A stretch of DNA of 64,000 nucleotides, taken from an uncultured Thermoleophilia bacterium. Lineage in GTDB: Bacteria > Actinomycetota > Thermoleophilia > UBA2241. Positions 1 through 59,489 of the stretch are shown here, piece after piece. The DNA lies in contig CAVOGK010000040.1 in NCBI GenBank assembly GCA_963695395.1, forward strand, positions 17,699 through 81,698, in the 5' to 3' direction. The translations under genes were made by a program, and so were the position numbers. The notes beneath the pieces are model-generated. The model had not been told where the DNA came from. It was given only the letters and a program-made list of their open reading frames with translations, and made no database searches. Each line of letters starts with the position of its first letter. The first letter of the stretch is position 1.

Positions 1-207
1 CCGCCCTGAGCCGGTCAGGATCAGGACGTACTCGCCTCTGCCCACGCGCTCGACCAGGCGCTCGGCGGCCAGCAGCGTGAGCGCCCTGCCCTGGGCCCGG
101 TGCGCGGCCTCGTACAGCGGCAGGATCACGCCCCGGTTCTCGACCCCGCCGCGCTTCATCTCGATGGTGACCAGACGGTCGACGTTCAGTCCGAATGTCT
201 CGGGCAT
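1..207 (-). CDS. Hypothetical protein, N-terminal fragment running off the left edge (possibly DUF4392 / D-glutamate-cyclase-like)
   Basis: Minus-strand ATG at 207 preceded by the purine-rich GGGAAGGGA. Frame stays open to position 1. Translation is MPETFGLNVDRLVTIEMKRGGVENRGVILPLYEAAHRAQGRALTLLAAERLVERVGRGEYVLILTGSG. The family guess is from memory of DUF4392 N-termini only. Confidence 0.45.
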   Translation of the reverse strand, partial: MPETFGLNVDRLVTIEMKRGGVENRGVILPLYEAAHRAQGRALTLLAAERLVERVGRGEYVLILTGSGR

Positions 208-244
208 TCTTGTCCCTTCCCTCGTCGGAGCGGCAGCGCCGGTC

Positions 245-1555
245 CTACGCGAGCTCGTTGTCGATGCTCTCGAGGACCTCGTCGATGATGGCGATGCCCT
301 CGGTCACCTGGCTCTCGGTGATGATCAGCGGCGGGCCGACGAACAGCAGGTTCGCCATGACGTTGGTGCTCAACCCGCGCTCGAGCAGTCGCCGGTGGAC
401 GCTTCCCGCCAGCGCGGGAGACAGAGGCTCCCTGGTCGCGCGGTCGGCGACGAGGTCGAGGCAGAAGAACAGCCCCGTGCCGCGCACGTCGCCCACGCAG
501 CGGCGCCTGGCCTTGACCTCTTCCAGCTGAGGCCTCACCACGTCTCCCAGCCTGCGGGCGTTCTCGATCAGCCCTTCCTCGTGCAGGACGCGGAGCACGG
601 CGCTCGCCGTGCCGCAGGCGAGCGGGTGGGCGCTGTACGTCAGGCCCACGTACAGCATCTCGTGGTCCAGCTTCTCCATGATCCGGTCCGAGACGGCGAC
701 GCAGCCCAGCGGGACGTACCCGCAGGTGAGCCCCTTGGCCATGGTGATCATGTCGGGCACGACGCCGTCGTAGTGGTTGATGGCGAACCACTCACCGGTG
801 CGGCCGAGGCCCACCATCACCTCGTCCAGGATCAGCAAGACGCCGTGCTGGTCGCAGATCTCGCGCAGACGCTCGTAGTAGCCCGCGGGGGGCGCGAAGA
901 ACCCCGCTCCGCCCGTGTGGGTCTCCACCAGCACGGCGGCGACGGTCTTGGGCGACTCCCAGCGGATGATCTCGTCGACGTGCTCCGCGCAGCGCAGGCC
1001 GCAGTCTGGATGCGTCAGCCCGAACGGGCAGCGGTAGCAGAAGGGATCGAGGAAGTGGACGACGCCGGGGATGCCGGGCTCGACCGGCGGGCGGCGGAAG
1101 TCGCCGGTGAGGGTGATGGCGCCGTAGGTGGCCCCGTGATAGGAGCGGTACTTGGCGAGGATCTTGGACTTGCCTGTGTAGGCGCGCGCGATCTTCACGG
1201 CGTTCTCGTTGGCGTCGGCGCCGGCGGTGGTGAAGAAGAAGCGGTCGAGGTCGCCCGGCGTGACCGCGGCGAGGTCCTGGCCAAGCCTGGACCGCGACTC
1301 GCAGGCCCAGTCCGCACGCGCGTAACAGATCTTCTCCGCCTCGTCCTTGATCGCCTGGATCACCATGGGATGCTGGTGGCCGATGGAGAGGTTGACGAGG
1401 CCGGAGGAGAAGTCGAGGTACCGGTTGCCGTCACCGTCCCAGAAGTACACCCCTTCGCCCCGCTCGAGGACCGGGGGCCTGATGTCCGCCTGGACCGACC
1501 AGCTGTGGATGATGTGCCTTCTGTCGAGGGTCTTGATGGCTTCTTGCGACAACAT
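245..1555 (-). CDS. Class-III PLP-dependent aminotransferase (omega-amino acid / taurine:pyruvate-type)
   Basis: 436-aa ORF with typical class-III blocks: GHQHPMVIQAI, FFTTAGADANENAVKIAR, LILDEVMVGLGRTGEWFA and MITMAKGLT (Schiff-base Lys). Confidence 0.9.
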   Translation of the reverse strand: MLSQEAIKTLDRRHIIHSWSVQADIRPPVLERGEGVYFWDGDGNRYLDFSSGLVNLSIGHQHPMVIQAIKDEAEKICYARADWACESRSRLGQDLAAVTPGDLDRFFFTTAGADANENAVKIARAYTGKSKILAKYRSYHGATYGAITLTGDFRRPPVEPGIPGVVHFLDPFCYRCPFGLTHPDCGLRCAEHVDEIIRWESPKTVAAVLVETHTGGAGFFAPPAGYYERLREICDQHGVLLILDEVMVGLGRTGEWFAINHYDGVVPDMITMAKGLTCGYVPLGCVAVSDRIMEKLDHEMLYVGLTYSAHPLACGTASAVLRVLHEEGLIENARRLGDVVRPQLEEVKARRRCVGDVRGTGLFFCLDLVADRATREPLSPALAGSVHRRLLERGLSTNVMANLLFVGPPLIITESQVTEGIAIIDEVLESIDNELA

Positions 1556-1648
1556 GAGGGGCTCCTTGTGTGACCGCTCGGGGTCACTCGGTGAAGTCGA
1601 TCTGGACGCGGTCCCGGACCAGCGTCCGGCGAACCGGAGGCGCGCGGC

Positions 1649-3124
1649 TCACGCCTGTCCGGCGACGAGTCCGGCGATGATCTCCTGGACCTCGGAGCGA
1701 GTCGCATCGGAGACCGGCGGCGGCTCGTGCGCAGCCAGAGCCGCGCGAGCTTGCTCGCGCGCGCGCTCCACGAGATCAGGCTTGGTCTGCCCGCTCCAGG
1801 CGTAGCGCGACTGACGGTCGAACAACCTCGCCTGGGACCGCTCCCGCATGTGCCGCGAGGTGTGCTTGTGGCTGAGGTACTGACCTCCGGGGCCCACCTC
1901 CTCGATCACGTCGAGAGCGAGCTGCTCGTCGGTGAGAGGGATGCCGCCCAGGATCGCGCGGATCATGCGCGCGCAGTCCACGTCGAGCATGAACTTGGCG
2001 TAGTCGAAGGTGAGGCCGAACTCGAGCGCGCCGAGGCCGTTGATGACGTTGGCGCCGGCGAGGGCGGCCAGCAGCCCGTTCATGGCGCCCTCGTAGCCCA
2101 TCTGGGCGTCGGCGACCTTGCTGCCGCTCGGGAACGCCGACACCAGATTAGGGAGGCCGTAGTACTGCGCGAGCTTCGTCGACGCCGCGTCGATCATGCC
2201 CATCTCGGGAGCGCCGTAGGCGTGGTTGCCGGTCTTGAGGTCCATCATGGCGCTCGAGTTGGCGTAGACGACGCGCGTGCCGCGACGCACCAGCTGCGCG
2301 AGGACGAGAGCGCTCAGGAACTCCACGTTGGTGCACACCACGGAGCCGGCCACGGTGACCGGCCCGGTGGCGCCGCCCACGATCGCCGGAGCGCACACGA
2401 TGCCGGCGCCGTCCAGCTTGGCCGACGCGATGGTCATCTCGGCGCAGTCCCTGCCCATCTTGAGCGGGCTCACGGGGGCGACGATGGAGGTGAAGATCGG
2501 CCGGCGCGCGAACTCCGCGGCGCCGCCGACGTGCGCGAAGGCGATGCGGGCGATGGCGGAGAAGTTGGCGGCGTCGCCGGGTCCGATGAAGACATGCTTG
2601 CCGGTGTTGGCGAAGAGAGACTCGGCGTTGAACACCGGGTGGAGGCCCGGCGGCGCGTCCAGGGAGGCGACCGGGCGATGCATCACGCCCACCTCGTCCA
2701 GGCTGTCGCACAGCCGGGTGATGTCCGCGCTGTCCTGCTGGGTCGTCGGCCGCAAGGTACCGTCCGCCAGGTCGACGATCTGGACCAGCTCGCCCATCGG
2801 AGCGAATGTCACGCGGTGGGGGTCCATCGAGTAGTCCGACTCCGGGCTTCTCCCCTTGAGCACCACGGGGCGGGCCGCCGAGCGGATGCACTCCTCGACC
2901 ACGGATGCGGGGACCTTGACCAGAGCATCGGCCCCCTGCCGCTCCACGCGCGCTCCGGCCGACGCGAAGATCTCGAATGCCTCCTCGCTCGCCTCGACGA
3001 CGACGCCGGTGTTCTCGAAGACCTCGAGGCTGGCCTCGTGGAGGCGGTCCAGATCGTCCGGGGTGAACGCACTCAGACCCCAGCCGCTGGTCTCCCACAC
3101 ACCGTCTCTTGGTGACCTGTTCAC
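1649..3124 (-). CDS. MttB-superfamily (trimethylamine-type) substrate:corrinoid methyltransferase, non-pyrrolysine member
   Basis: Uninterrupted 491-aa ORF with full-length resemblance to COG5598/MttB proteins (GANVINGLGALEFGLTFDYAKFMLD, EVGPGGQYLSHKHT). No in-frame TAG. Confidence 0.88.
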   Translation of the reverse strand: MNRSPRDGVWETSGWGLSAFTPDDLDRLHEASLEVFENTGVVVEASEEAFEIFASAGARVERQGADALVKVPASVVEECIRSAARPVVLKGRSPESDYSMDPHRVTFAPMGELVQIVDLADGTLRPTTQQDSADITRLCDSLDEVGVMHRPVASLDAPPGLHPVFNAESLFANTGKHVFIGPGDAANFSAIARIAFAHVGGAAEFARRPIFTSIVAPVSPLKMGRDCAEMTIASAKLDGAGIVCAPAIVGGATGPVTVAGSVVCTNVEFLSALVLAQLVRRGTRVVYANSSAMMDLKTGNHAYGAPEMGMIDAASTKLAQYYGLPNLVSAFPSGSKVADAQMGYEGAMNGLLAALAGANVINGLGALEFGLTFDYAKFMLDVDCARMIRAILGGIPLTDEQLALDVIEEVGPGGQYLSHKHTSRHMRERSQARLFDRQSRYAWSGQTKPDLVERAREQARAALAAHEPPPVSDATRSEVQEIIAGLVAGQA

Positions 3125-3140
3125 AGCACCATCCCGTCAG

Positions 3141-4514
3141 CTAGAACTTGAACCGGACGCCGTATGCGGCCAGGTCCTTGCGAGCCTTGTCGTAGAGTGC
3201 CTGATGCTCGGCGGTGGGTTTCAGGGTCTTCATGTCGTAGCACTCCCAGAACTTGAGCCCCCTGGGCGCCCCGGTCAACTGGTCTTCGTAGTGCGTCATG
3301 ATCTGCTTGACGAGCTGGTCCGCCTCCGCGCGCGTCATTCCCAGCACGGAGTGCGCAACGAGCGAGGACCAGCGCCCGTTCATCGGCGTGATGTGATCCA
3401 TCACGGCGTTGCCCGGCGAGCCGCCGGTGGGTCCTACCGAGCTGCCCGAGACGACGTGCGCGATCACCGGCGCGGCCGCCTCGTAAGGCTGCATCTCGGC
3501 GCCCGGGCCGGAGGCGACCAGCGCCGATATCTGCAGGGGGAAGTGGCTGTTGCGCGAGATCGCCTGGGCGCTGGCGCTCATGCCCCAGATGACCCCCCGG
3601 CTCGTGCTGCACGACGTGCGCATGTCGATGGAGAAGTTCAGCTGGATGGAGCCACGGAAGACGAGCATCGAGTGCAGGTGGTAGGCCACGTTGGCGACGG
3701 CCATGCCCTCGGGGCCGCCGCAGTAGCCGCCCACCATGGGGCACGTCTCCGCGACCACGTGGCCACCCAGGCTGATGACGTAGGCGACCTCGTTCAGCCG
3801 CTCCCAGCTGGCCTTCATCTCGGCCAGCGGCCCGATGTTCCAGCCGTCCGACGGCCGCATGCCGAAGGCGCTGCCGGCGATCTTGCCCGTGTCCGACACG
3901 GCCGTGGCAATAGAGTTCTGCACGGGCATCCCCGGCCGTCCGGCCCGCCGCAGGCCCTCGCGCGTGAGGACCGTGCTCTTGATGCAGGCGAGGATCTCCA
4001 GAGGCGTGCCCGCGCGGACCATCGACCCGTGGTAGTTGGCCAGCGAGGGCGCCGTGACGCCGTCGCCCAGGGGGATCTCGCCGGTGGCTTGCACGAAGGC
4101 CTCGAACACCTCCTCGCTGGAGACGGGCGTGCCGCCCGCCCCCACGTAGCACCAGGGTGGGATCTCGCTCTCGGGTCGCCGGGAGGGGTAGGCCTTGGCG
4201 TCCTTGCCCTCGCCGAACACGGGTCCGCGCGGCGCCGTCGCCAGCGCTTCGCGGATCTCCGCCTCGGTGAACTGGATGATGCGGCTGGTGTCCACGCAGT
4301 AGGTGCCGACCTCCTGGTAGAACTCCAGGCCGGCCCGGAACAGCCGATCGGCGAACTCGTCGTCGGAGGGCACCACGACCTGCGGGTCGTAGCGGATCTC
4401 GTACTTCTTCAGGATCCGGCGCAGCGCGGGAACGAAGACCTTGAGGTCGTAGTCCCTCTCCGGCACCAGAGGGCCGGTCATGGCGCGGTCGACGACTTCC
4501 TCGAAGGAGATCAT
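3141..4514 (-). CDS. MtmB-like (monomethylamine methyltransferase family) protein lacking pyrrolysine
   Basis: Start at MISFEEVV (ATG 4514, ATGA overlap with the upstream stop) gives 457 aa plus stop, about the length I recall for MtmB (~458 aa). Blocks recalled from Methanosarcina MtmB: LFRAGLEFYQEVGTYCVDTSRIIQFTEAEI, AGRPGMPVQ (MtmB has AGRPGMGV-Pyl) and the C-terminal FWECYDMKTLKPTAEHQALYDKARKDL. The ORF-track start at 4619 adds an Arg-rich, non-native-looking leader. Confidence 0.85.
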   Translation of the reverse strand: MISFEEVVDRAMTGPLVPERDYDLKVFVPALRRILKKYEIRYDPQVVVPSDDEFADRLFRAGLEFYQEVGTYCVDTSRIIQFTEAEIREALATAPRGPVFGEGKDAKAYPSRRPESEIPPWCYVGAGGTPVSSEEVFEAFVQATGEIPLGDGVTAPSLANYHGSMVRAGTPLEILACIKSTVLTREGLRRAGRPGMPVQNSIATAVSDTGKIAGSAFGMRPSDGWNIGPLAEMKASWERLNEVAYVISLGGHVVAETCPMVGGYCGGPEGMAVANVAYHLHSMLVFRGSIQLNFSIDMRTSCSTSRGVIWGMSASAQAISRNSHFPLQISALVASGPGAEMQPYEAAAPVIAHVVSGSSVGPTGGSPGNAVMDHITPMNGRWSSLVAHSVLGMTRAEADQLVKQIMTHYEDQLTGAPRGLKFWECYDMKTLKPTAEHQALYDKARKDLAAYGVRFKF

Positions 4515-5186
4515 CGGCCGGCCTCGACAGCCGTCGTGGCCTCCACATGCGCGAGCGCGAGGTCCACGGCGTCCGCCGCCGTCTGCCCGTAGCCGTCGGC
4601 GCCGATCTCCTCGGCCCATCCGGCGGTCGTCGGGCCTCCGCCCACCATCACGTAGTAGTCAGCCCTGCTTCCCCGGGCCTCCAGGTACTGGATGACGTCC
4701 TGCTGCTGCGCCATCGTGGTGGTCATGAGCGCCGAGAGGGCGATGATGTCCGCCTTCGCCTTCTCGGCCGCCTCGACGAACCCGGCCGCCGGTACATCGC
4801 TGCCGAGGTCGATCACCTCGAAGCCCGCCGTCTGCAGCATCGTTGCCACGATGCTCTTGCCGAGGGAGTGCACGTCGCCCTTGACCGAGCCGAGGACGAC
4901 CTTGGCCTTGGCCTCGCCCCCTCGCCCCTGGGCGGCGAGCAGCGGGCCCAGGAGGTCCATGCCCTCCTGCCAAGCGTCGGCTGCCATCATCATCTCGGGC
5001 AGATACACCTCAGAGCGCTGGAACTGCTCGCCGACCTCCCGGAGCCCCGGGATCATGCCGTCGTCCAGGAGAGCGCCGGGGTCCGCGCCTTCGTCCAGCC
5101 CCGCTGGATCAAAGGCCGCACTTCGTCGAACCCCCATCGACGAATGCCGCGCGGATGCGCTCGACGGCGCTGGGCCTGTCAGTCAT
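4511..5186 (-). CDS. B12-binding corrinoid protein (MtmC/MttC/MtgC-like); N-terminal cap split over three frames as assembled
   Basis: DxHxxG...SxL...GG signature: GDVHSLGKS, ALSALMTTT, VMVGGGP. The cap-helix sequence MTDRPSAVERIRAAFVDGG (frame from ATG 5186), FDEVRPLIQRG (second frame) and LDEGADPGALLDDGMIPGL (ORF-track frame) only joins if one base is added in each of the C-runs 5131-5135 and 5099-5102. Confidence 0.8.
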
Positions 5187-5246
5187 CGCAGTCCTCTCGT
5201 GACGCATGCTTGCTTCTCCTCGAGTCGGGGATGTGGGTGGGAGCGA

Positions 5247-5684
5247 TCAGTGGACGTAGGGCACGTGGAGGTTCTCGCTGCCGAAGACCACGAAGGTCTC
5301 GCAGTAGCTCACGCGTTCGACGGTGCTGACCTCGTCGCGGAAGAACTCGAGGAGGCCGAAGTCCGGGGCGAAGAGCACCTGCAGGATCAGGTGGAAGCGC
5401 CCGGTGACCGCCGCCACAGAGATCACGCCGCGCAGAGCGCTGAACTCTTTCGCCTTGGCCATGATGTCCATGGTGTCCAGGCTGACACCGATGTAGACCA
5501 GCTGGTGCTGCGGCAGTCGCCCCGGGTCGACGAGCGCGGTGATCTCCATGCCCCCGTCGTCCAGCAGGGCCTTGGCACGCGAGCGGACGGTGTTCTCCGA
5601 CAGCGAGAGCTCCTGGGCGATCTCGCGGTACGACCTGCGGCCGTCCTTGAGCAAGCGCACGAGCTCCAGGTTCTCTTCCGTCAT
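5247..5684 (-). CDS. Lrp/AsnC-family transcriptional regulator
   Basis: MTEENLELVRLLKDGRRSYREIAQELSLSENTVRSRAKALL is the HTH, followed by an RAM/AsnC_trans_reg-like C-terminal domain. The internal Met at 5684 is preferred over the ORF-track start at 5738. Confidence 0.85.
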   Translation of the reverse strand: MTEENLELVRLLKDGRRSYREIAQELSLSENTVRSRAKALLDDGGMEITALVDPGRLPQHQLVYIGVSLDTMDIMAKAKEFSALRGVISVAAVTGRFHLILQVLFAPDFGLLEFFRDEVSTVERVSYCETFVVFGSENLHVPYVH

Positions 5685-5800
5685 CACCACGCGACCCCCT
5701 GAGACAGCCTTCTGATGAATTCCGCAGTCAAGGTACATTCCAGTTAGCTATCAGTCAACCATCTACCAGAAGATTGCGCGATACAGCATAAGTAAGCCTC
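5685..5800 (-). promoter_or_regulatory. AT-richer upstream region of the AsnC/methyltransferase operon (candidate promoter/operator)
   Basis: Locally AT-enriched tract (ttctgatgaattccgcagtcaaggtacattccagttagctatcagtcaaccatctaccagaagattgcgcgatacagcataagtaag) in otherwise very GC-rich DNA, directly upstream of the first gene. No specific box identified. Confidence 0.25.
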
Positions 5801-5974
5801 ACTCTTGAGTCCACAAGTCTGCGTCCATGGCCCGCCCCGGCGGACGCTCACGGCACCGCATCGCGCTTGCCCTGCGGCATCGCGTGGCCGATCGGGGTGG
5901 GCCCTTCGCGAGACGAGCAATCTGGAAGGTGGCCGCCCGCGAAGGCGCCGGCCTCGAGGAAGCGAGTGGGTCCG

Positions 5975-7260
5975 CTACGACTGGTCGGTGGACGGTCGGC
6001 TCTCTCGCGACAACCCCACCTTCGCCGCACCGACGATGACGCGGACCAGTGCGCCCAGCAGCACGAGGTCGATCAGCATCTGCAGGCTGACGAGGACGCG
6101 CGCCATGTCGGTCCTGGGCGTGATGTCGCCGAAGCCGACGGTGGCGAAGACGGTGATCGCGAAGTAGAGGGCGCCGGTGTGGTCCAGCGGCTCGCTGAAG
6201 GCGCTCGACGACGTGTGAGAGAGTGACAGGTAGATGCTGGCGAACAAGTACAGGAAGAGCGGCACCGCGACGGCGAGCCCCTCGATCGCCTTGAGCCCGG
6301 GCAGATCGGCCTTCAGGATCCGATGGACCTGCCAGGCGACGATGACCAGGAAGACCAGGCAGCCGACCGCGAGGCGCATCAGGGCGGCAGCCCCGCTCAG
6401 CCCTCCGGTCGGCGTGGCGATCTCTTCCGCCCTGTCCCGGGGCCACAGCAGGTACATCGACGCCAGCGCCAGCGCGCAGCCGATCAGCGTGTCGAGCAGC
6501 CGGTGACCCGCCCACGAGCCGATGTCGCCGGCCGGGGCTCCGACGAGCACCACAGCCCCCATCGCCGCCAGCCCGCCCGCAAGCAACGGGTACGGCGGGC
6601 TCAAGGCGAGGGAGAGAAGGACCGCCGCGACGCCGAGGACGATGAGCGCGCGGCCCGGCACGACCTGCGAGAGCACCCCGAGAAGCGCGACCCCGATGAC
6701 GGTCGAGGCGACGCGCGCGAGGGCGACGCTGGCCGAGCTCTTACCCGTCGGCAGGAGGACGACGTAGGCGGCCAGGAAGACCCAAAGGGCGTCGTGGCTG
6801 CCGGAGCGCTGGTAGAGGAACATGCCGATCGCCAGCGGGATCGCGCGGCGCACGCCATCGCGGGCGTGCTCATCAAACGAGCGCACAGAGGACCACATGG
6901 CGCCCCACGGCGCGGGGATCCGCGGCGCGTTCGCCGCGGCCTCGCGGTCCCGCCAGCGAGCCAAGCGTGCCGAGCGCCGCGCCGACGCGCCCGCTGACGG
7001 CCGCGACGGAGGTGAGCACGGCGACTCCCGCCATGGCCAGCGCCGCCAGCCATGGAAGGCCGACGGTCGCGAGCGCGACGAACACCGCGACCACCGCGAC
7101 CACCGCTGTGAAGGAGGCCACGCGCAGGGCGACGCGTGAGGGACCACTGGCTCCGGCGGCGGCGACCAGGGCGCCGGTGACACCGGCGAGCGCGGCGCCG
7201 CGGCGCGGCTCTACCGCGTAGCCGAGCAGACCGCCAGCACAGGCGCCGGCGAGCACGAAG
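5975..7260 (-). CDS. FUSC-like (fusaric-acid-resistance-type) membrane domain fused in frame to a 2-TM K+-channel pore; 5' part in another frame
   Basis: FUSC_2-like segment RRAIPLAIGMFLYQRSGSHDALWVFLAAYVVLLPTGKSS...RVASTVIGVALLG...HRLLDTLIGCALALASMYLLWP, followed by the pore helix and selectivity filter ALYFAITVFATVGFGDITP. Additional N-terminal TM helices (WRLLFFVLAGACAGGLLGYAV...LAALAMAGVAVLTSVAAV) lie in a different frame upstream of ~6950. Start is approximate. Confidence 0.6.
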
Positions 7261-7339
7261 AACAGGAGCCGCCACGCTGCGCAAGGCGCGGCCGTGACCG
7301 CGGCGCCGCGAGATCGCTGGCTCGGCGGCCCCGGGCTCC

Positions 7340-7705
7340 CTACCCGAGCAGCTTGGACTTGGCTGCCCGGAATTCGTCGTCGGTGAGCTTGCCGCTCTCG
7401 TGCAACGCGACGACCTGATCCATCTGCCGCGTCCACTCGGCCTCGATGGGCCCCTGCGACTTCTTCGTCGGGAAGTACGTGGAGAACTCGCCACCATAGG
7501 GCCGCACCATGAGATAGATGAGGCCGCCGATCCAGGGCAGCACGAACAACACGACGATCCACAGCACCCGGGCGAGCGGCGACAGGCCCTTGCGTGACAG
7601 GATGTCCACGAAGAGGTAGATCCAGAGCACCAGCAGACTTAGGCCGAGCATCACCGTCACGAAGCTCCAGAAGTAGTCCCAGAACGTCGCCGCGATCACT
7701 ATCAT
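7340..7705 (-). CDS. Small membrane protein with PLD-N-terminal-like TM hairpin and C-terminal SHOCT domain
   Basis: 121 aa. LWIVVLFVLPWIGGLIYLMVRP resembles the cardiolipin-synthase N-terminal motif. The C-terminal LHESGKLTDDEFRAAKSKLLG is a SHOCT-type motif. Confidence 0.7.
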   Translation of the reverse strand: MIVIAATFWDYFWSFVTVMLGLSLLVLWIYLFVDILSRKGLSPLARVLWIVVLFVLPWIGGLIYLMVRPYGGEFSTYFPTKKSQGPIEAEWTRQMDQVVALHESGKLTDDEFRAAKSKLLG

Positions 7706-7762
7706 GATCCTTCCTCCTCGTTCGTCTCGATCGATAGCCGTACATACCCGCGCGCGAGGCCC

Positions 7763-8083
7763 TTACGCACGCGCCATCCCCAGCAACTCCTTCCGGGTGA
7801 GCCCCGCTGCGTCCAGGAGCTCGGGCGCGGGCTCCTCACCCGTGCGCCGGATGCGCTGCAGGTACCAGCGTGCACGATAGACGAAGTGATAGCGATCGAA
7901 GAGCACCACCAGGATGCTGATGAGGAAGAGGAAGAAGCCGAACAGGGGGAGCGGGACATCTTCGCCGAAGCCCAGGGCATACTCGCCCAAGATGAGGGCG
8001 ACGACCAGGAGGCCGTTGACCGCCAGCATCACGGCGAACTGCGCCGCCAAGGAGGCCAGCTGTGCCCGCGCCGCGCCAGCCAT
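7763..8083 (-). CDS. Hypothetical membrane protein
   Basis: 106-aa ORF with two clear hydrophobic helices and a basic tail. May be the 3' part of one gene together with 8029-8214. Confidence 0.45.
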   Translation of the reverse strand: MAGAARAQLASLAAQFAVMLAVNGLLVVALILGEYALGFGEDVPLPLFGFFLFLISILVVLFDRYHFVYRARWYLQRIRRTGEEPAPELLDAAGLTRKELLGMARA

Positions 8084-10111: not shown

Positions 10112-10188
10112 TGGTGGGCCCAGCAGGACTCGAACCTGCGACCGGCCGATTATGAGTCGGCTGCTCTAACCAGCTGAGCTATAGGCCC
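10112..10188 (-). tRNA. tRNA with CAU anticodon (elongator Met or lysidine-modified Ile2)
   Basis: Reverse complement is GGGCCTATAGCTCAGCTGGTTAGAGCAGCCGACTCATAATCGGCCGGTCGCAGGTTCGAGTCCTGCTGGGCCCACCA. It shows a 7-bp acceptor stem, D and T arms, the anticodon loop CT-CAT-AA and an encoded CCA. Confidence 0.88.
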
Positions 10189-21900: not shown

Positions 21901-21975
<75 letters not shown>

Positions 21976-22074: not shown

Positions 22075-23523
22075 TCAGTGCCATCGCGGCGCCGTCCACC
22101 ACCCGTGAGGCACGCCGTAGGCCTCCGATCCCACCGCCACGTGGCTTCGCTGACCGCGACGCGCGTCGGCGGTCAGCTTCGCCGTCAGCGCCTCGCGCAG
22201 CTGGTCGAAGCGCGGGCGCCAGTAGCTGTCGTCACCGGGAGCCAGCCCCGCGAGCTCGTGACTCGCCACGACGGCCGTGGCGGCCTCGTGCGCGTCCAGG
22301 TGCTCCTTCCACCACTCCGGATGCTCGATGCGGGTCCCGTACCGTGACGCGGGGGCCGCGACGTCGACCTCGTGCTCACCCGTGGGCATGAACGCCCACG
22401 CCTGCGCGTCGACCGTGACGGAGGTGTCGGTCGCGGCCGTCACGAAGCGCTCCAGCGCATCGAGCGTCTCGCCCGCCGTCTCCGCGGTCTCCCCCGGCTG
22501 GTTGAACGCAAGGCGGGCGCGCGTGACCACACCCTTGGCGTTCAGGTACTCGAGCAACTCCAGGGCGTGGGCGACGGCCTTCTTCGGGTTCGCGGCCTGG
22601 CCGGTGCGGCCGAGGAGCCCGGGCGACAGCGCCCCTACCTCGAGCACGACGCCGATGCGCGCCCGGCAGACCTTGTCGATATCCAGACGCACCAAGGCGT
22701 CCGGGCGTCCGGAGATGGTGAGCGCGAGGTCTCGCCGGTCACCGGCCGCCAGACGGTCCAGCACGGCGCGCCGCCAGCCCGCCTCGTACCCGAAGACCGG
22801 GTCCAGCACCTCGACCTTGCCCGGCCGTAGCGCGGCGACGCGGTCGATCGCCTCGACGGCGACGTCCGGAGGGTAGGCGTGCCAACCGGCGCCGCCCGGA
22901 CGGAGCAGGCACGCCGGCGCGTTGTACGGGCACCCGCGGCTGAGAGACAGTCCGATCTCGGGCAGACCCTCCGCGACGTAGGGGTACGCCGTATAGTCGG
23001 GCAGGTGCTCCGCGTCGAGCGGCAGCGGCGTACCCTCGAGCGAGTGGCAGCCACCGGTCTCGCGCTCGCCGGCGGCGACCTGCCCGGCGAGGGTGACGAC
23101 GGCCGACTCAGCCTCGCCGGCGATCAGCCAGTCGAAGGGGGCGCCCGGATCGTTGAAGTCGTCCGGGCACACCGACACATGATGGCCCTCCACGGCGATC
23201 ACCGCGTCCGGCAGCTGCCGGCGCGCGCGTTCGGCGACCGCCACGGCAGCCGAGTAGTGAAGGGCGGACCAGCAGGAGACCACGACGAGGTCCGCCTCGT
23301 GCTCTGCGAGCAAGCCCTCGGCGATCTGCAGGAAGCTCTCGCGGGCGACGTCGTCGGCCGGGTTGCCCAGCTCCGACTCGAGGTCGAGGACGTCGGTCGC
23401 GTGGCCCGCCCGGCGGAGCTCGGTGAAGAGCTGCACCAACTCGGGCTTGACCTGCGGCCCGTCGGCCCAGCGGCCGCCGTAGAGCGAGCCGGGGAACACC
23501 AGCAGCACGAGCGTCTCCTGCAT
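22075..23523 (-). CDS. B12-binding-domain / radical-SAM-fold protein with a degenerate Cys motif
   Basis: Start at MQETLVLLVFPG (ATG 23523), 482 aa. N-terminal Rossmann-like B12-binding-type domain (DLVVVSCWSALHYSAAVAVAERARRQLPDAVIAVEGHHVS). Where CxxxCxxC is expected the sequence is LSLSRGCPYNAPACLL, which has only two Cys. The upstream part of the 635-aa ORF-track entry overlaps the sigma gene and is not credible. Confidence 0.65.
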   Translation of the reverse strand: MQETLVLLVFPGSLYGGRWADGPQVKPELVQLFTELRRAGHATDVLDLESELGNPADDVARESFLQIAEGLLAEHEADLVVVSCWSALHYSAAVAVAERARRQLPDAVIAVEGHHVSVCPDDFNDPGAPFDWLIAGEAESAVVTLAGQVAAGERETGGCHSLEGTPLPLDAEHLPDYTAYPYVAEGLPEIGLSLSRGCPYNAPACLLRPGGAGWHAYPPDVAVEAIDRVAALRPGKVEVLDPVFGYEAGWRRAVLDRLAAGDRRDLALTISGRPDALVRLDIDKVCRARIGVVLEVGALSPGLLGRTGQAANPKKAVAHALELLEYLNAKGVVTRARLAFNQPGETAETAGETLDALERFVTAATDTSVTVDAQAWAFMPTGEHEVDVAAPASRYGTRIEHPEWWKEHLDAHEAATAVVASHELAGLAPGDDSYWRPRFDQLREALTAKLTADARRGQRSHVAVGSEAYGVPHGWWTAPRWH

Positions 23524-23536
23524 CGCGAGCGAGGTC

Positions 23537-24673
<1,137 letters not shown>

Positions 24674-24863
24674 TGACTCGTTCAGCTCCTTGGTTGCAGC
24701 GGTACGGGGAGCGGGTGGCGCTGTCCTGCCCCGCTCCCGCCTCCGCGTTCGTCGTCGTGGTCGTGGCCGGCAACCGTTGCCGGATGGTCCTCTCGCGCGC
24801 CTTTCGGCTCGATCAGCGGTGTGCCTGCGGCACCCCGCTCGCTCGTCGATCCGCCCGCAGCGC

Positions 24864-25996
<1,133 letters not shown>

Positions 25997-26000
<4 letters not shown>

Positions 26001-27820
26001 CGCTCTTCGGTGTCGTCGTCGACCGGGATGGCGCGGAGCGCTTCGCGCAGGCTCCGTCGTACCGACTCGAGCCTCGCCAGCTCCTCACCCTGCCTCCCAG
26101 CTTCGTCAGTCTTCATCGTGACCTTGAGCCGCGCGATGAGTCGGCCCACCTGCGCCTCCTGGAGACGCAGGAACAACTCCTTGATGACGGTCGCGGTGAA
26201 CCGCTCCCGCCCGGCCCGCACGATCACCTCGGCGAACGCCTCGGCGCCGTCGCCCGCGGGCCCGAACGCCTCCGCCGATTGCGGGGTATTCCCCGCCTCA
26301 TCGGCGGTCAATCTCGCCTTGACACGACGGAGCGCGGCGCGCGTCTCCGCCGTGGCGAAGAAGCCCTCGTCGACGCCCGCGAGCGCCTCCCGTCCGGGCC
26401 CGGGCTGCGCCAGGCAGCCGGCCAGGAACCTGACCTCGAGCTCGTGGGCGCCGCCTGAAGCGACCGCGGGTCCACCGCCCCGCGAAGGCGTGCGCTCGCT
26501 GCCGGCAGCACCCGTGACGGGGCGTCCGCTGCCGGAGAGCAGGTAGCGCACGCTCTCCGCGGAGAGCTGCAGCTTGTCAGCGACATACCGCAGCTCGTCG
26601 TCGCGTTCCATCGGCGTCGCTGCTTCGGAGAGGACCTCCCTGAGTCGCGCGAACGCGCGTGCCCTTCCGTCGGGCTTGTCGAGGTCGTGAGTAGCGAGCG
26701 CCAAGCGGACGTGGAATTGTAGCAGCGTCTGCGCCTCGGCGGCAAGCGCGCGGAACCCGTCTCCCCCAGCCCCGGCGAGGACGAAGTCGGCCGGGTCCAG
26801 ACCGTCGGGAACGCGCACGACGTGCAGCGAGAGATTCATGCGACGACCGAGCGAGAGCGCACGCTGCATGGCGCCGATACCGGCCGCGTCGGCGTCGAAG
26901 CACAGGTAGAGGTTGCGCGTGAGGCGCGAGAGGCGGCCCAGCTGCTGCTCCGTGAGGGCCGTCCCCATGCTCGCGACCACGTTGGCGACGCCCGCCTGAG
27001 CGAGGGCCAGGACGTCGGTGTAGCCCTCGACGACGTAGACGCGGTCGTCCCGGCGGGCGGCATCCTTTGCCTTGTCCAGGCCGAACAGAGCCTCGCTCTT
27101 GTGGTAGAGCGAGGTCTCCGGCGAGTTGAGGTACTTGGGCTTCTCGTCGCCGAGGGTGCGAGCGCCGAAGCCCAGCGTGCGCCCGCGCTCGTCGCCGAGC
27201 GGGAACATGATGCGCCCGCGGAAGCGGTCGTACGGGCGGCCGCTCTTGCCGGGGATCACGAGTCCGGCGTCGAGGAGGTCCTGGTCGCTGAAGCCGGTCT
27301 TGAGGGCGGCATCGCGCAGCGTGCCCCAGCCGGGCCTGCTGAAGCCGACGTGAAAGGCGCGGCAGGTCTCGTCCAGGAGGCCGCGCCCCGCGAGGTAGTC
27401 GCGGGCGGGCGCGGCTGCGGGAGCGTCCCAGAGGACGCGCTCGAAGTAGTCCCCAGCCTTCGCGAGCACCGCCCTCAGGCGCTCGCGGCGCCGGCGCTCA
27501 GCGTCGCCGCGGGCGCTCGACTCCTCGTACTCGAGCATGATCCCGTACTTGTCCGCGAGGTACTCGACGGCCTCGGGAAAATCCATGTTCTCCTTGGCCA
27601 TGACGAAGCCGATGAGATTGCCGCCGGCGCCGCAGCCGAAGCAGTAGTACAGCTTCTCGCCGGGGTTCACCGAGAACGACGGCGTGCGCTCCTCGTGGAA
27701 GGGGCAGCGGCCGCTGAAGTTGGCGCCGGCCTTCTTGAGGTCGGTGTACTGGCCGACGACCTCGACCATGTCGGCGGCGGCGACCACCTGCTCGATGCTG
27801 CTCTGCGCGATGAGGGCCAC
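25997..27820 (-). CDS. dnaG: DNA primase
   Basis: 607 aa, GTG start. CHC2 zinc finger [31 protein letters not shown], and a TOPRIM block [13 protein letters not shown]. Confidence 0.92.
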
Positions 27821-27821
27821 G

Positions 27822-28253
27822 TCAGCGTCCCCCGTCGTTGCGGGCGTCGTGCGCGGCGCGGTCGCGCCGCCGGCGCGCCTCGCGCTGCTCGCGGCGGCGC
27901 AGCGCCTCGATGGTCGCCTGCTGCTCGGCGGCCACGACCCGCATGGTGGCTCCCGTGCGGCGGCGCTCCTTCTTGCCGGGGCGCGGTGAGCGTTCGTGAG
28001 GCTGCCACGTGTAGCCGATGTGGTCGAACGACCACACGAGCAGGACGGTGAGCGCCGTCATCCACGCCAGGTAGAAGAGGGCGAAGAGAGCCCACGCCTC
28101 GGGCGTCGTCGTGTCTTTGGCCGGGGGAGCGCCCCAGGGCTGGATCTGCGGCAGACGCAGCCAGCCGAGGCCGAACGTGACGACGGCGGGCACGACGGCC
28201 AGGATGAGCAGGCCGACGGTGACGAGCACGATCAGCAGCCGGCGACGGTCCAC
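27822..28253 (-). CDS. Hypothetical small membrane protein with a basic coiled C-terminus
   Basis: GTG at 28253 about 10 nt after GGAGG. Two TM helices (LLIVLVTVGLLILAVVPAVV, ALFALFYLAWMTALTVLLVW), then an Arg/Glu-rich tail. Stop is 1 nt before the dnaG start. Confidence 0.5.
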   Translation of the reverse strand: MDRRRLLIVLVTVGLLILAVVPAVVTFGLGWLRLPQIQPWGAPPAKDTTTPEAWALFALFYLAWMTALTVLLVWSFDHIGYTWQPHERSPRPGKKERRRTGATMRVVAAEQQATIEALRRREQREARRRRDRAAHDARNDGGR

Positions 28254-43167: not shown

Positions 43168-44151
43168 TCAGTCCGGCTCCTCCTCGGCCGCCGGCCACCC
43201 TCCCGCCAAGGGCTCCACGTCGCCGGCCGGCGCCTCGGCAGAGACGCCCTCGTCTTCCACGCGCTGCAGGATCATCCCCAGCACCGCGCTCAGATTATCT
43301 TCGAGGCTGGGGCTGTCGATGACCGGGACGCCGAGCTCCTGAGCCCGCCCCACCATGTACTTCTGGATGCGGCGGATGTCGGCGAAGTGCTCCAGGTAGC
43401 GGCGCAGAGGGCGGATGCCGCCCGTCTCCCACTCGCGCACCGTGAAGTTGCCGCGATGCCGCTGTTTGTCGGCCACCGCGAGCATGAACTCGAGCACGAT
43501 CGCCTCGCCCCAGCGCGACCGGTCGAGATAGCCGGGTACCAGGTGAACGCCCTCGACGACCATCCGCTGCGCCTCCGCTATGCCACGTGCGATCAGCGCC
43601 TCGATGCCCACGGAGACCGCCTTGGTCTGTTCGATGAACCCCATCTTGCTCAGGTCGGTCTCTCGCGGCATCGGCACGCGTACCGCCGAGGCCGCGTCGA
43701 ACGAAGAGGTGTGGATGGCGGGCATGAGCTCGGGGGCGAAGAAGGCGCGCATCGTCTGCCGAACCATGTCAGTGCCGATCACCCGGGTGATGCCGAGTCG
43801 ATGCGCGAGTTGGGTGGCGAGCGTGCTCTTGCCGACGCCGGTGGCGCCCCCGATGAGCACGATGAGGGGCGTCTCCAGGCGACGGAGCTTCTGCCACTGG
43901 TCGAACCGCGCGATCAGGACGTCGCCCTGCTCGCGGCCGAGCTGGTCACGGGCGATCTCGAGCAGATCGGCCATGGTGAGGGCCGCCGGCCCGCGGCGCC
44001 GCAGGCGCCGCTCCACGGCGGCCGCAACGTTGTACGCGCGTTCGGGCGCGAGCCCCGTGGACATGAGCGTCTGCGCCATGAGCCCCTTGCTGAACGGAGC
44101 CTCGTCGCCCTCGTCGATGAGTGGGGTGTCGCCGTAGTCGGTCACGGTCAC
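43168..44151 (-). CDS. 2-phosphoglycerate kinase (COG2074 family)
   Basis: 327 aa, GTG start overlapping the cpgS TGA (GTGA). N-terminal PFSKGLMAQTLMSTGLAPERAYNVAAAVE (ATP-cone-like) and P-loop LIGGATGVGKSTLATQLAHRLGI. Confidence 0.8.
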   Translation of the reverse strand: MTVTDYGDTPLIDEGDEAPFSKGLMAQTLMSTGLAPERAYNVAAAVERRLRRRGPAALTMADLLEIARDQLGREQGDVLIARFDQWQKLRRLETPLIVLIGGATGVGKSTLATQLAHRLGITRVIGTDMVRQTMRAFFAPELMPAIHTSSFDAASAVRVPMPRETDLSKMGFIEQTKAVSVGIEALIARGIAEAQRMVVEGVHLVPGYLDRSRWGEAIVLEFMLAVADKQRHRGNFTVREWETGGIRPLRRYLEHFADIRRIQKYMVGRAQELGVPVIDSPSLEDNLSAVLGMILQRVEDEGVSAEAPAGDVEPLAGGWPAAEEEPD

Positions 44152-45605
44152 TCCGGGGCCGCGGGTCCGTCGCCGGGCGCCGCGCCGGTCCGAGTCGCGA
44201 AGCGCTCCCGGGCAAGCGCGGCGAGGCGGTCCACGGCGGCGGCGAGGTCACCGCTCAGCGCTACGGGTTCGTTGTCGCAGAAGACCAGCTCGCGGCCGGC
44301 GGCGGCCGCGCCCTCGGCGACGACGTCGACGGCCGCGGCCTTGATCTCGGTGAGGAAGACGTCGGCCTCGGCGGCGGCGCGGTCGACCGCGGCCGCGAGA
44401 CGGCGACGGTCGGCGAGGTCGCACGAGACCAGGACGACCTCGGCGCCGTGGTCCTCCTCGAGCGACGCGGCGAGCTGCGCCGCCGCGCCCTCCGGCGCCG
44501 TCGTGAAGAAGGCCACGCGACGGCCACGGACGGGCTTGGACGGCCGGGGCCGGAACACCGTGGGGATCACCTCGATGCCGGGCCGCACGGCCTTCACCGC
44601 GGCGATGAGCGCCCCGACGTCCCCGGGCTCCGCGAACGGGAGCTCGCACTGCGTCAGCACCAGGATGTCGCTGAGCAGGAGCCGGTACGTCCCGAGGTAG
44701 CCGGCGACGTAGTCGACCGGCTGACCGGCACCGGCCACGCAGACCGTGGCGTCGGCCAGCACCGGCGGCACCACGGCCCCGCTGCCCTCGATCACGGCGA
44801 GCGCGGCGCCGCTCTCCTCGACCAGCGGGACCGCCTCGCGCACGTTGTCGTCGAAGGGGGCGCCGGCGAGCCCGCCGCCGCAGCGCCGGCACCCGATGGC
44901 GGTCACCCCCGCGAGCACCGCGTCCTCGTAGCAGTCGCTGGCGGCGTGCCGCCCGGCGCGGGAGGCGGCGAGCAGCTCGGCCGGGCCGAGCCCGTCGCCG
45001 CCGCGGATCAGCTCCGGCTCCGGCGGGCCGCCGCGACCCATCGCCACGATGACGACGCCGCCGTCCGTCCGCAGGGCGGCGTCGAGGCGGCGCGTGAGCC
45101 AGCCGCTCACGGCCGTCTTGCCGACACGCTTGCCGGTGCCGATCACGCCGAGCGAGGGCACGGCGGCCAGACGCGCGAAGGCTTGCGGCCGCACGTCGGT
45201 GTCGGCGGCCACGTAGCCGGCGCCCTCGGCCAGCGCCGCGCTCATGAGCAGAAAGCGCTCGCGGTAGCCGACGACCGGCTCGTCCGAGAGGTCGATGAGG
45301 ACCTCGGCGCGCGCCGCGCGCAGCGCGGCGCGCACGCCTTCGAGGACCTCATGCGCGGACGCCGATCGCGGCTCGACGGCATGGAGTCGCGGGAGCCCTA
45401 CCTCGGCGGCCAAGGCGGCCAGACCGGCGGCGGACCCGCCGCGGTCGGACGCGGCGTCGGGCGCGAAGCCCGGCGCAGCCGCGTCGCCCACGCGCAGCTT
45501 CTCGCGCCCGCCCGCGAAGATTCCTGCCCGCACGTCGTACGCACCACCGAGCCCCGCGACCGCGGCGGCGACCACGGGCGGGTAGTGCTCGCCGTCGATG
45601 AGCAC
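44148..45605 (-). CDS. cpgS: Cyclic 2,3-diphosphoglycerate synthetase-like protein
   Basis: N-terminal LIDGEHYPPVV, P-loop GVIGTGKRVGKTAVS, ~485 aa. Family recalled from the Methanothermus/Methanopyrus enzymes. The start (GTG 45605) is approximate; the ORF-track N-terminus overlaps the upstream gene. Confidence 0.72.
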   Translation of the reverse strand: MLIDGEHYPPVVAAAVAGLGGAYDVRAGIFAGGREKLRVGDAAAPGFAPDAASDRGGSAAGLAALAAEVGLPRLHAVEPRSASAHEVLEGVRAALRAARAEVLIDLSDEPVVGYRERFLLMSAALAEGAGYVAADTDVRPQAFARLAAVPSLGVIGTGKRVGKTAVSGWLTRRLDAALRTDGGVVIVAMGRGGPPEPELIRGGDGLGPAELLAASRAGRHAASDCYEDAVLAGVTAIGCRRCGGGLAGAPFDDNVREAVPLVEESGAALAVIEGSGAVVPPVLADATVCVAGAGQPVDYVAGYLGTYRLLLSDILVLTQCELPFAEPGDVGALIAAVKAVRPGIEVIPTVFRPRPSKPVRGRRVAFFTTAPEGAAAQLAASLEEDHGAEVVLVSCDLADRRRLAAAVDRAAAEADVFLTEIKAAAVDVVAEGAAAAGRELVFCDNEPVALSGDLAAAVDRLAALARERFATRTGAAPGDGPAAPE

Positions 45606-55469: not shown

Positions 55470-55534
55470 AGCAAGACACCCCTTCCCGGCATCACGGCCA
55501 CAACAGCCTCGTCGATCGGCCCGACATCCTCCTC

Positions 55535-56557: not shown

Positions 56558-56639
56558 GCGTACTCCCTCGCGTTCACTGGACTTGGGGGCGGCCGCGTCG
56601 CGACCTTCAGACTCACACCCCGCGACGGGCCAAGGCCGG

Positions 56640-59452: not shown

Positions 59453-59489
59453 GCACTCACCCTTCGTCAGGTTCTGAGCCCGGCAGGAA

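Follow-up and report, generated by a model that had tools for sequence, protein, structure and literature searches.

We analyzed 64,000 nucleotides of DNA from an uncultured Thermoleophilia bacterium (contig CAVOGK010000040.1, positions 17,699 to 81,698 of the forward strand), a stretch that we call the window, and focus here on an operon at its left end. At positions 1-5738, on the minus strand, six co-directional genes encode an AsnC-type regulator, a corrinoid protein, two methyltransferases of the unrelated MtmB and MttB families that both lack pyrrolysine (Pyl), a class-III pyridoxal phosphate (PLP) aminotransferase and the first part of a DUF4392 protein. We propose that they form the promoter-proximal part of a methylated-amine catabolic operon of an uncultured soil Thermoleophilia-like actinobacterium, in which an amine would be demethylated by the two methyltransferases in turn and then deaminated and oxidized. 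Judging from the sequence, we give this full scheme a probability of about 0.5. Among corrinoid-dependent methylamine methyltransferase systems, the operon represents a variant of what is known and not a separate kind.

The direction, order and spacing of the six genes are those that an earlier reading of this DNA, the original prediction, had described. The corrinoid and MtmB-like genes share 4 nt (4511-4514), the gaps that follow are 16, 93 and 37 nt, and 109 nt separate the regulator gene from the corrinoid gene. Third-position GC content (GC3) is 0.87-0.93 in the six open reading frames (ORFs), and the window as a whole is 69% G+C. The features of the operon are as follows.

5247-5738, minus strand: AsnC/Lrp-family transcriptional regulator (Pfam HTH_AsnC-type and AsnC_trans_reg)
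4511-5137, minus strand: corrinoid (B12-binding) methyl-carrier protein, 208 amino acids (aa) (PF02310, PF02607)
3141-4514, minus strand: non-pyrrolysine MtmB-family methyltransferase, 457 aa, presumed substrate:Co(I)-corrinoid methyltransferase (MT1) (PF05369)
3920-3918, minus strand: CAG codon for Gln199, the equivalent of MtmB Pyl202 (alignment to 1L2Q)
1649-3124, minus strand: non-pyrrolysine MttB-family methyltransferase, 491 or 483 aa, presumed second MT1 (PF06253)
2131-2129, minus strand: CCG codon for Pro332, the equivalent of MttB Pyl334 (alignment to 7XCL)
245-1555, minus strand: class-III PLP aminotransferase, 436 aa (PF00202, NCBIfam PRK06062)
1-207, minus strand: partial DUF4392 / D-glutamate-cyclase-like_C (GLUCM-like_C) gene, first 69 codons (identity to the gene of a related contig, L001)

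Two of the start codons call for comment. The MttB-like gene may begin at GTG 3124 (491 aa) or at GTG 3100 (483 aa); a database protein that is 100% identical, P0121, has 483 aa and so corresponds to the second start, which would widen the gap to the MtmB-like gene to 40 nt. The regulator probably starts at ATG 5684, giving 145 aa rather than the maximal 163 aa, and its orthologue in L001 also has 145 aa. An AT-richer stretch lies upstream of this gene (5740-5830), and Shine-Dalgarno-like sequences precede the starts of the aminotransferase (AAGGAG) and DUF4392 genes. Consensus scans of 1-6200 returned 0 promoter-like and 2 terminator-like sites, with no excess over shuffled sequence; at shuffle level, in a genome of 69% G+C, these scans carry no weight for the boundaries of the operon.

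Protein families and the pyrrolysine positions

Both methyltransferases belong to the families to which they had been assigned. The MtmB-like protein matches PF05369 with 302.4 bits (cut-off 25), its residues 6-452 covering positions 5-449 of a 450-position profile, and aligns with Methanosarcina barkeri MtmB (PDB 1L2Q/1NTH) across residues 7-453 (E 6e-54). An AlphaFold model with a mean pLDDT of 92.9 was matched by Foldseek to 1NTH at a TM-score of 0.94 (root-mean-square deviation 1.9 Å, E 1e-41, 28% identity over 453 columns), and on this model the protein is predicted to have the TIM-barrel fold of the M. barkeri enzyme. Model confidence is low only in residues 201-210 and 361-370 (mean pLDDT 67 and 63), and the former block includes the loop right after Gln199. 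An in-frame UAG at position 202, by which a pyrrolysine MtmB would be recognized, was looked for; the column instead holds CAG, so that Gln199 aligns with Pyl202 and the ORF runs on uninterrupted. To place this residue, we surveyed the Pyl-equivalent position in 101 MtmB-like sequences from 85 related loci. It is Met in 59 of them, and Gln is limited to the clade of the window protein (7 of the 101, members at least 68% identical). That clade falls among bacterial sequences in a neighbor-joining tree, distant from Pyl-MtmB. The PF05369 family is a small one of ~1,080 clusters at 50% identity, and most of the members sampled here are without pyrrolysine.

The MttB-like protein passes PF06253 at 298.7 bits (cut-off 25), with residues 19-484 covering positions 33-493 of a 500-position profile, and scores 507 bits, under the 525 cut-off, against TIGR02369, the trimeth_pyl equivalog model. 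In comparisons with solved structures it scores 251 bits against M. barkeri MttB (7XCL) and 211 bits against MtgB. Its Pro332, encoded by CCG in an uninterrupted ORF, aligns with Pyl334 of MttB, and Pro occupies this column in all 24 of 24 representatives that are at least 61% identical. The next clade, at 43-53% identity, has His there. Neighbor joining places the Pro clade as sister to the His clade, the two grouping beside genuine Pyl-MttB and far from MtgB. In our alignments the protein has none of the residues with which MtgB binds glycine betaine: the equivalents of Arg312, His348, Tyr97 and Phe356 are Leu, Asn (a gap in the MAFFT alignment), Gly and Gly. In MtgB, Arg312 and His348 bind the acidic group and Tyr97 and Phe356 make cation-pi contacts, and Arg312, which binds the acidic group of the substrate, is kept in all characterized non-Pyl members of the MttB family (PMC13080624).

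Neither methyltransferase ORF contains an in-frame TAG, both align end to end with pyrrolysine enzymes, and no pyl-type genes were found in Pfam scans of ~50 window ORFs, some small ORFs remaining unscanned; on these points, too, the original prediction stands. TAG does occur in the operon as the stop codon of the MtmB-like and aminotransferase genes. By alignment, Gln199 and Pro332 are specific to their respective clades.

The Rfam model RF02510 (PYLIS_3), which describes the pyrrolysine insertion sequence of mttB, matches 2131-2032 on the minus strand, inside the MttB-like gene, over its full length and with 43.3 bits (gathering score 38). The UAG of the model falls in frame on CCG, the codon of Pro332; the few modeled pairs include two non-standard ones, and the folding energy of the stretch is ordinary relative to shuffles (z -1.13). 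We had weighed whether the match is a relic or a functional recoding signal and, on these grounds, rejected a function. It reflects coding-sequence homology, and comparable weak matches occur in non-Pyl homologues from two other loci, L001 (CCG) and L083 (CAT). The PYLIS_3 model can thus exceed its own threshold on pyrrolysine-free genes.

Two Thermoleophilia metagenome-assembled genome (MAG) loci differ in this respect. L014 (14580-14582 and 18982-18984) and L017 (14656-14658) have an in-frame TAG at the pyrrolysine position of mttB; the surrounding sequence reads WVAGL*GDSKVVDAQSGHEK, where the asterisk stands for the TAG, and PYLIS_3 matches of 74-79 bits start at this codon. By their sequences, these actinobacterial MAGs carry genuine Pyl-type mttB genes, with a corrinoid gene and an MtmB-like gene of the non-Pyl, Met-type kind next to them. 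There are no pyl genes within 10 kb in L017, where an Orn/Arg/DAP-type decarboxylase gene and two SBP_bac_5 genes are also found nearby. Our literature search found no paper tying pyrrolysine to Thermoleophilia.

The operon's sole corrinoid gene (4511-5137) encodes a protein that matches PF02310 (B12-binding, 98.6 bits) and PF02607 (B12-binding_2, 46.6 bits) and carries the DxHxxG His-on motif as D-V-H-S-L-G; its best NCBIfam matches are MtgC at 200.9 bits (cut-off 310), TIGR02370 at 198.8 (215.3) and MtbC at 197.9 (350), all near but short of their cut-offs, which leaves the protein without a specific subfamily. The aminotransferase scores 303.1 bits against PF00202 and 535.8 bits against PRK06062 (cut-off 472). 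Its best PDB match is the taurine:2-oxoglutarate aminotransferase Toa (6JIX), at 348.7 bits against 266 for the next; Toa itself passes PRK06062 at 520.6 bits, and the two proteins are 40% identical over their full length, a level that does not fix the substrate. The PbfA ammonia-lyase model gives ~300 bits, under its cut-off. The regulator matches PF13404 (HTH_AsnC-type) at 32.2 bits (cut-off 27) and PF01037 (AsnC_trans_reg) at 25.3, borderline to the cut-off of 25. The partial ORF at 1-207 shares 68 of 69 residues with the L001:12758-13789 product, which matches PF14336 (DUF4392) with 167 bits. The nearest solved relative of this DUF4392 protein, TON_0340, gives a weak match (52 bits, C-terminal half only).

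Conserved gene order and a second methyltransferase cluster

The closest relatives of the operon are on contigs of uncultured Actinomycetes/Thermoleophilia MAGs, and it is from relatives 81-96% identical that the DNA to the left of the window is reconstructed. In L001, whose MtmB-like protein is 96% identical to ours, the order is AsnC, corrinoid, MtmB-like, MttB-like, aminotransferase, DUF4392, PLP enzyme, aldehyde ferredoxin oxidoreductase (AFOR) and DHDPS-family aldolase, with tiny intergenic distances. The series from the MtmB-like gene through MttB-like, class-III aminotransferase, DUF4392 and PLP enzyme to AFOR, or as much of it as the contig reaches, is present on seven other contigs (L001, L003, L080, L081, L085 and two from JGI), at protein identities to the window from 96% down to 61%. 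The MttB-like proteins of the seven are 61-94% identical to that of the window; for L003, L080, L081, L085 and the JGI contigs the values are 61-71%, and 80-84% for those MtmB-like sequences that we have in hand. In L001, L081 and L085, after the DUF4392 gene come an MJ0158-like PLP enzyme (424 aa in L001; TIGR03576 216 bits, PDB 2AEU 126 bits), AFOR, and then either an aldolase whose best solved relative is human HOGA1, 4-hydroxy-2-oxoglutarate aldolase (268 bits), or a URO-D gene; L085 has a URO-D methyltransferase and a sulfatase in place of the aldolase. Because this order recurs past the partial ORF, the operon extends beyond the window's left edge, and the six genes originally counted are not the whole of it. 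The AsnC regulator gene is present here and is kept only in the closest relatives, L001 and L002, which are at least 96% identical.

A comparable module occurs in Chloroflexi MAGs, where a corrinoid gene, an MtmB-like gene and a second MtmB-like paralogue are followed by an aminotransferase, AFOR or both: L007/L086 and L013 have both, L008 the aminotransferase and L015 AFOR. MtmB-like pairs also adjoin class-III aminotransferases in L028, and in L007/L086 the unit of corrinoid protein and two methyltransferases is duplicated. The corrinoid-adjacent and aminotransferase-adjacent copies form two separate orthologous subclades in a neighbor-joining tree, so that in the clade of the window the MttB-like gene sits where the second MtmB paralogue would be. 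The aminotransferases of the actinobacterial and Chloroflexi versions alike pass PRK06062, at 529-556 bits.

We surveyed 57 genome loci whose flanks reach at least 6 kb; a corrinoid gene lies within 1 kb in 42 and a second MT1 in 27 (a second MtmB-like gene in 16, an MttB-like gene within 5 kb in 13). Co-location of MtmB-like and MttB-like genes is thus not unique to the window's operon. A class-III aminotransferase within 5 kb is rarer (10 of the 57) and is accompanied by a second MT1 in 7. Elsewhere, on the JGI contig of P0149 and in L083, the neighbors of a His-type MttB-like gene (53% identical) include genes for a class-III aminotransferase, aldehyde dehydrogenase, a dimethylglycine-oxidase-like DAO/FAO_M/GCV_T protein (an oxidative demethylase), two alcohol dehydrogenases, and URO-D and DRL_cat/SAF proteins; here the same logic takes an aerobic-style form. 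In L086, too, the Chloroflexi module has a DRL_cat/SAF gene after it. Our literature search turned up no description of MtmB-like and MttB-like genes combined with an aminotransferase and AFOR.

Other MtmB-like genes keep different company. At L085:1-6012 a second, divergent system comprises a corrinoid protein, an MtmB-like protein (36% identical), an amidohydrolase, a three-subunit xanthine-dehydrogenase-family enzyme and GntR regulators, and xanthine-dehydrogenase-family genes are also found upstream of the MtmB-like gene in L017. These contexts suggest that another clade of MtmB-like enzymes may demethylate N-methylated heterocycles such as methylpurines. Methyltransferase genes of this kind repeatedly have Opp/Dpp-type ABC transporter genes (SBP_bac_5, BPD_transp_1/OppC_N, oligo_HPY ATPases) beside them, in L082, L017, L085 and the JGI contigs of P0143 and P0149, which suggests uptake of amino-acid-, peptide- or opine-like substrates. 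The window's operon contains no transporter gene.

A second group of methyltransferase genes lies at 55-61 kb in the window.

55535-56758, minus strand: MtaA/CmuA-like URO-D methyltransferase
56640-57296, minus strand: second corrinoid protein, 43% identical to the 4511-5137 corrinoid protein
57385-58413, minus strand: MtaA/CmuA-like URO-D methyltransferase
58493-59542, minus strand: MtrH/MtgA-like methyltransferase, candidate methylcorrinoid methyltransferase (MT2) (PF02007, 153.6 bits)
59490-61475, minus strand: RACo-type reductive activator (2Fe-2S and ASKHA ATPase; RACo Pfam domains)

The MtrH/MtgA-like protein scores 293.9 bits against NF002142 (cut-off 287) and 143 bits against MtgA; the activator matches RACo_C_ter (316.7 bits), Raco_middle (174.2), RACo_linker (77.8) and Fer2 (34.6), and is AcsV-like at 497 bits. 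The original prediction held that the operon encodes neither an MT2 nor an activase, which is what we find in the window's operon, and that candidates for both are at 55.5-61.5 kb. Those genes are real, but they lie inside a separate cluster that is itself a complete, self-contained second corrinoid methyltransferase system. That the MtrH-like and RACo genes serve the operon in trans from 53 kb away is plausible but unsupported: almost no homologues of these three kinds of gene (MtrH, RACo and URO-D) turned up when all related loci were searched, so a link between the conserved operon and this cluster cannot be claimed. In gene content the cluster resembles the type 1 mlp clusters of Kountz and Balskus (PMC10418091), which likewise combine a RACE/RACo activase and a corrinoid protein with two MtaA/CmuA-like URO-D methyltransferases; it differs in its MtrH/MtgA-like methyltransferase, which type 1 clusters characteristically lack. 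Before the cluster comes an alpha/beta hydrolase gene (54675-55658). The minus strand also carries, upstream of the RACo gene, genes for a CCG-domain protein (61468-62298), for a NarI-like membrane protein containing 4Fe-4S domains (61943-63571) and, in part, for the electron transfer flavoprotein alpha subunit (63576-63998), which could form an electron-input module; the CCG and NarI-like ORFs overlap in different frames and may represent a frameshift or a fused HdrD-like gene.

The middle of the window carries core chromosomal genes, among them two RpoD-like sigma factors, DnaG, GlyQS, RF1, ThyX and Rho. The sigma-factor genes stand in tandem at 23537-26084 on the minus strand, directly downstream of dnaG (25997-28057); both are primary-type, with regions 1.1, 1.2, 2, 3 and 4. 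A weak B12-binding match (37.1 bits) is the sole Pfam domain of a long ORF of high GC3 at 22075-24057 (minus strand), which as listed shares sequence with the 3' portion of the first sigma-factor ORF. The 2-kb bin at 6001-8000 has an AT skew of +0.27, against roughly -0.2 to +0.1 elsewhere, and covers a FUSC_2/ion-channel fusion gene (5975-7183) and the gene of a small PLDc_N membrane protein (7340-7705). ARAGORN and Rfam agree on tRNA-Met (10112-10188) and tRNA-Asn (21901-21975). A 92-nt tRNA-Cys at 43971-44062 on the plus strand was called by ARAGORN only, below the Rfam tRNA gathering score; it lies inside a minus-strand ORF of high GC3 (43168-44247) and is probably a false call.

Proposed pathway and competing explanations

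In the pathway that we propose, the MtmB-like and MttB-like TIM-barrel enzymes would each move one N-methyl group of the substrate onto Co(I) of the single shared corrinoid protein. The resulting methyl-Co(III) would be unloaded to tetrahydrofolate by an MT2 encoded elsewhere, one candidate being the MtrH/MtgA-like gene at 58.5 kb, and a RACo-type activase, with a candidate at 59.5 kb, would keep the corrinoid reduced by repairing Co(II). The class-III PLP enzyme would convert the fully demethylated primary amine to an aldehyde, and a tungsten/molybdenum AFOR, encoded beyond the window's edge, would oxidize the aldehyde to the acid with ferredoxin as acceptor. The actinobacterial and Chloroflexi versions share a ratio of two MT1 genes to one corrinoid gene, for which the simplest fit is a dimethylamino (tertiary amine) substrate. 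The original prediction had likewise proposed stepwise demethylation followed by transamination, and that idea has gained from the continuation of the operon into AFOR in relatives, from the Chloroflexi parallel and from the common aminotransferase subfamily. Gene content, family and fold, the absence of Pyl codons, the clade-specific residues and the synteny are direct observations; from them we infer each catalytic step, the direction of the pathway, its substrate and the use of a distant MT2 and activase.

Several points weigh against this proposal. Pyrrolysine is thought to be needed to activate methylamines that are not quaternary. All characterized non-Pyl members of both families take one methyl group from quaternary amines (PMC13080624, PMC12155760, PMC13044021), and with precedent of this kind only, demethylation to a primary amine would be unprecedented. 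Were the starting compound quaternary, three demethylations would be needed, and the operon has two MT1 genes. Neither the operon nor its counterparts on the seven related contigs contain or adjoin an MT2 or activase gene, apart from the URO-D gene in L085. Absence of an Arg312 equivalent from the MttB-like protein disfavors an acidic betaine and gives no positive identification of the substrate. Finally, the DUF4392, MJ0158-like PLP enzyme and HOGA1-like genes have no explained role in the scheme.

As to the substrate itself, our leading candidate, in which we place little confidence, is an N-methylated 2-aminoethyl compound such as those related to taurine, to ethanolamine phosphate or sulfate, or to choline. 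The hints are weak ones: the Toa-like aminotransferase, the HOGA1-like aldolase, the phosphatase similarity of DUF4392 and the sulfatase in L085. HOGA1 is known to act on glyoxylate and pyruvate. We found nothing relevant in the literature on a corrinoid methyltransferase with N-methyltaurine. Hydroxyproline betaine and N-methylated ornithine or lysine were considered and not adopted, there being no discriminating evidence, and carnitine- or butyrobetaine-type betaines were set aside as disfavored by the missing Arg312 equivalent. More generally, we advance as a tentative hypothesis, to which we give clearly less than even odds, that non-Pyl enzymes of the MtmB and MttB families jointly take a tertiary amine via the secondary to the primary amine on one corrinoid protein, feeding C1 metabolism on one side and a transaminase and AFOR on the other; that this is a widespread anaerobic route to complete N-demethylation in soil and sediment Actinomycetota and Chloroflexota; and that Gln and Pro at the Pyl positions mark the adaptation.

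Other explanations of the same genes have to be considered. It is conceivable, if unlikely, that each MT1 removes a single methyl group from a quaternary amine, the pair serving two substrates or taking one to a tertiary amine; the aminotransferase and AFOR would then have as substrate another primary amino group of that molecule, for instance in a diamine or amino acid that has one methylated nitrogen, or else some unrelated metabolite. MtgB, MtcB, MtpB, MtyB, MthB and MtqB are all quaternary-amine enzymes (PMC13080624, PMC12155760, PMC13044021). In addition, the non-Pyl MtmB-like genes beside Pyl-type mttB in L014 and L017 recall a route from tetramethylammonium to trimethylamine and on to further demethylation, and the recurrent Opp/Dpp-type transporters hint at substrates resembling amino acids or peptides. 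However, the occurrence in two phyla of one unit, with two MT1 genes and a corrinoid gene, PRK06062 and AFOR, is most simply understood as production of a primary amine out of a dimethylamino group, and the MttB-like protein lacks both the acidic-group Arg of the betaine enzymes and the aromatic pair of MtgB. A good deal less probable, in our view, is a lyase rather than transaminase function for the class-III PLP enzyme, like that of phosphoethanolamine phospho-lyase or of the PbfA ammonia-lyase, in a pathway for a phosphorylated or sulfated 2-aminoethyl substrate with DUF4392 as a metal-dependent phosphatase. Phosphocholine or choline-O-sulfate could be the starting compound, after the MthB/MthK phosphocholine route, and Eubacterium limosum demethylates phosphocholine, not choline (PMC12155760). 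TON_0340 is a probable Mn-dependent phosphatase (PMC5132392), but the resemblance of DUF4392 to it is the weak, half-length one given above. The closest characterized relative of the aminotransferase acts on 2-aminoethanesulfonate, a sulfatase gene follows the operon in L085, and an aldolase like HOGA1, joining glyoxylate and pyruvate, would suit a C2 skeleton; yet PbfA, for all its ~300 bits, is far from the best model for this enzyme, the operon includes no kinase gene, and the Arg conserved in MthB is missing from the MttB-like protein. Such a lyase would in any event refine the demethylation pathway rather than replace it.

A biosynthetic direction, with amination of an aldehyde followed by two N-methylations that draw on methyl-corrinoid, seems very improbable. 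Corrinoid methyl transfer is reversible in principle, but none of our results favors this direction, and we know of no corrinoid-protein-dependent N-methylation pathway, which counts against it. Moreover, the enzymes linked to the module are catabolic: AFOR and, where its relative is aerobic in style, aldehyde dehydrogenase with an oxidative demethylase. That the genes are neighbors by chance, with no joint function, is scarcely credible. The promoter and terminator scans, being no better than shuffles, do not show the operon boundaries directly and to that extent leave room for it; still, the same order on seven other contigs, kept from 96% down to 61% identity, indicates that the arrangement is more than chance, as do the 4-nt overlap and short gaps, and conserved synteny effectively excludes chance adjacency.

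Of the MtmB-family members that lack pyrrolysine, one has a known function, published in 2026. The operon and its Chloroflexi counterparts supply a testable hypothesis for a whole branch of this family, namely paired methyltransferases acting on one carrier and an amine that is then deaminated and oxidized. If it is true, pyrrolysine is not required to demethylate non-quaternary amines, and soils and sediments would hold an unrecognized anaerobic sink for methylated amines, which are precursors of trimethylamine and methane; Gln199 and Pro332 would become sequence markers for annotation and mutagenesis. The current names of such genes, 'monomethylamine' and 'trimethylamine methyltransferase', are almost certainly wrong.

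Comparison with known systems

The nearest functional precedent for the MtmB-like protein is MtqB (ACT9XH_RS04775) of Methanococcoides methylutens Q3c, an MtmB homologue without Pyl that was described in March 2026, which methylates cob(I)alamin from tetramethylammonium and choline, and so demethylates both, with a trace of monomethylamine activity (PMC13044021). This report overtakes the statement, made in the original prediction, that no non-Pyl relative of MtmB has an assigned substrate. MtqB and the window protein share PF05369 without pyrrolysine and a gene position beside that of the cognate corrinoid protein. In contrast, the MtqB/MtqC system is archaeal and methanogenic, has a single MT1 with quaternary substrates and passes its methyl group to coenzyme M via MtbA, whereas the system in the window is bacterial and pairs its MtmB-like enzyme with an MttB-like MT1, followed by an aminotransferase and AFOR. 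We set the two proteins side by side by published description, not by sequence: a profile search seeded with Asgard-type MtmB homologues had no Methanococcoides protein among its best 120 matches. MtqB has a conserved Met/Cys/aromatic pocket. At the Pyl position the clade of the window has Gln and most non-Pyl relatives have Met. Pyl-MtmB of M. barkeri is of the same fold and Pfam family, at 28% identity, and differs in having Pyl202 where the window protein has Gln199.

The MttB-like protein is nearer to MttB itself (7XCL; 251 bits, 34% identity) than to MtgB (29% identity), and it shares with MttB a Gly at the equivalents of MtgB Tyr97 and Phe356. In MttB, Pyl334 is followed by S-D-x-K; the window's clade has an invariant Pro followed by S-G-S-K, and no UAG. 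Characterized pyrrolysine-free members of the same superfamily act on glycine betaine (MtgB), carnitine (MtcB), proline betaine (MtpB), gamma-butyrobetaine (MtyB) and phosphocholine (MthB) (PMC13080624, PMC12155760). These enzymes work with a small corrinoid protein and a tetrahydrofolate methyltransferase that their operons encode and the window's operon does not, and none of them is linked to an aminotransferase, as the window's MttB-like gene is. The aminotransferase in turn belongs to the same PRK06062 subfamily as Toa of Bifidobacterium kashiwanohense (6JIX); Toa acts with a sulfoacetaldehyde reductase in taurine nitrogen assimilation, whereas its relative in the window is encoded between two corrinoid methyltransferases and AFOR.

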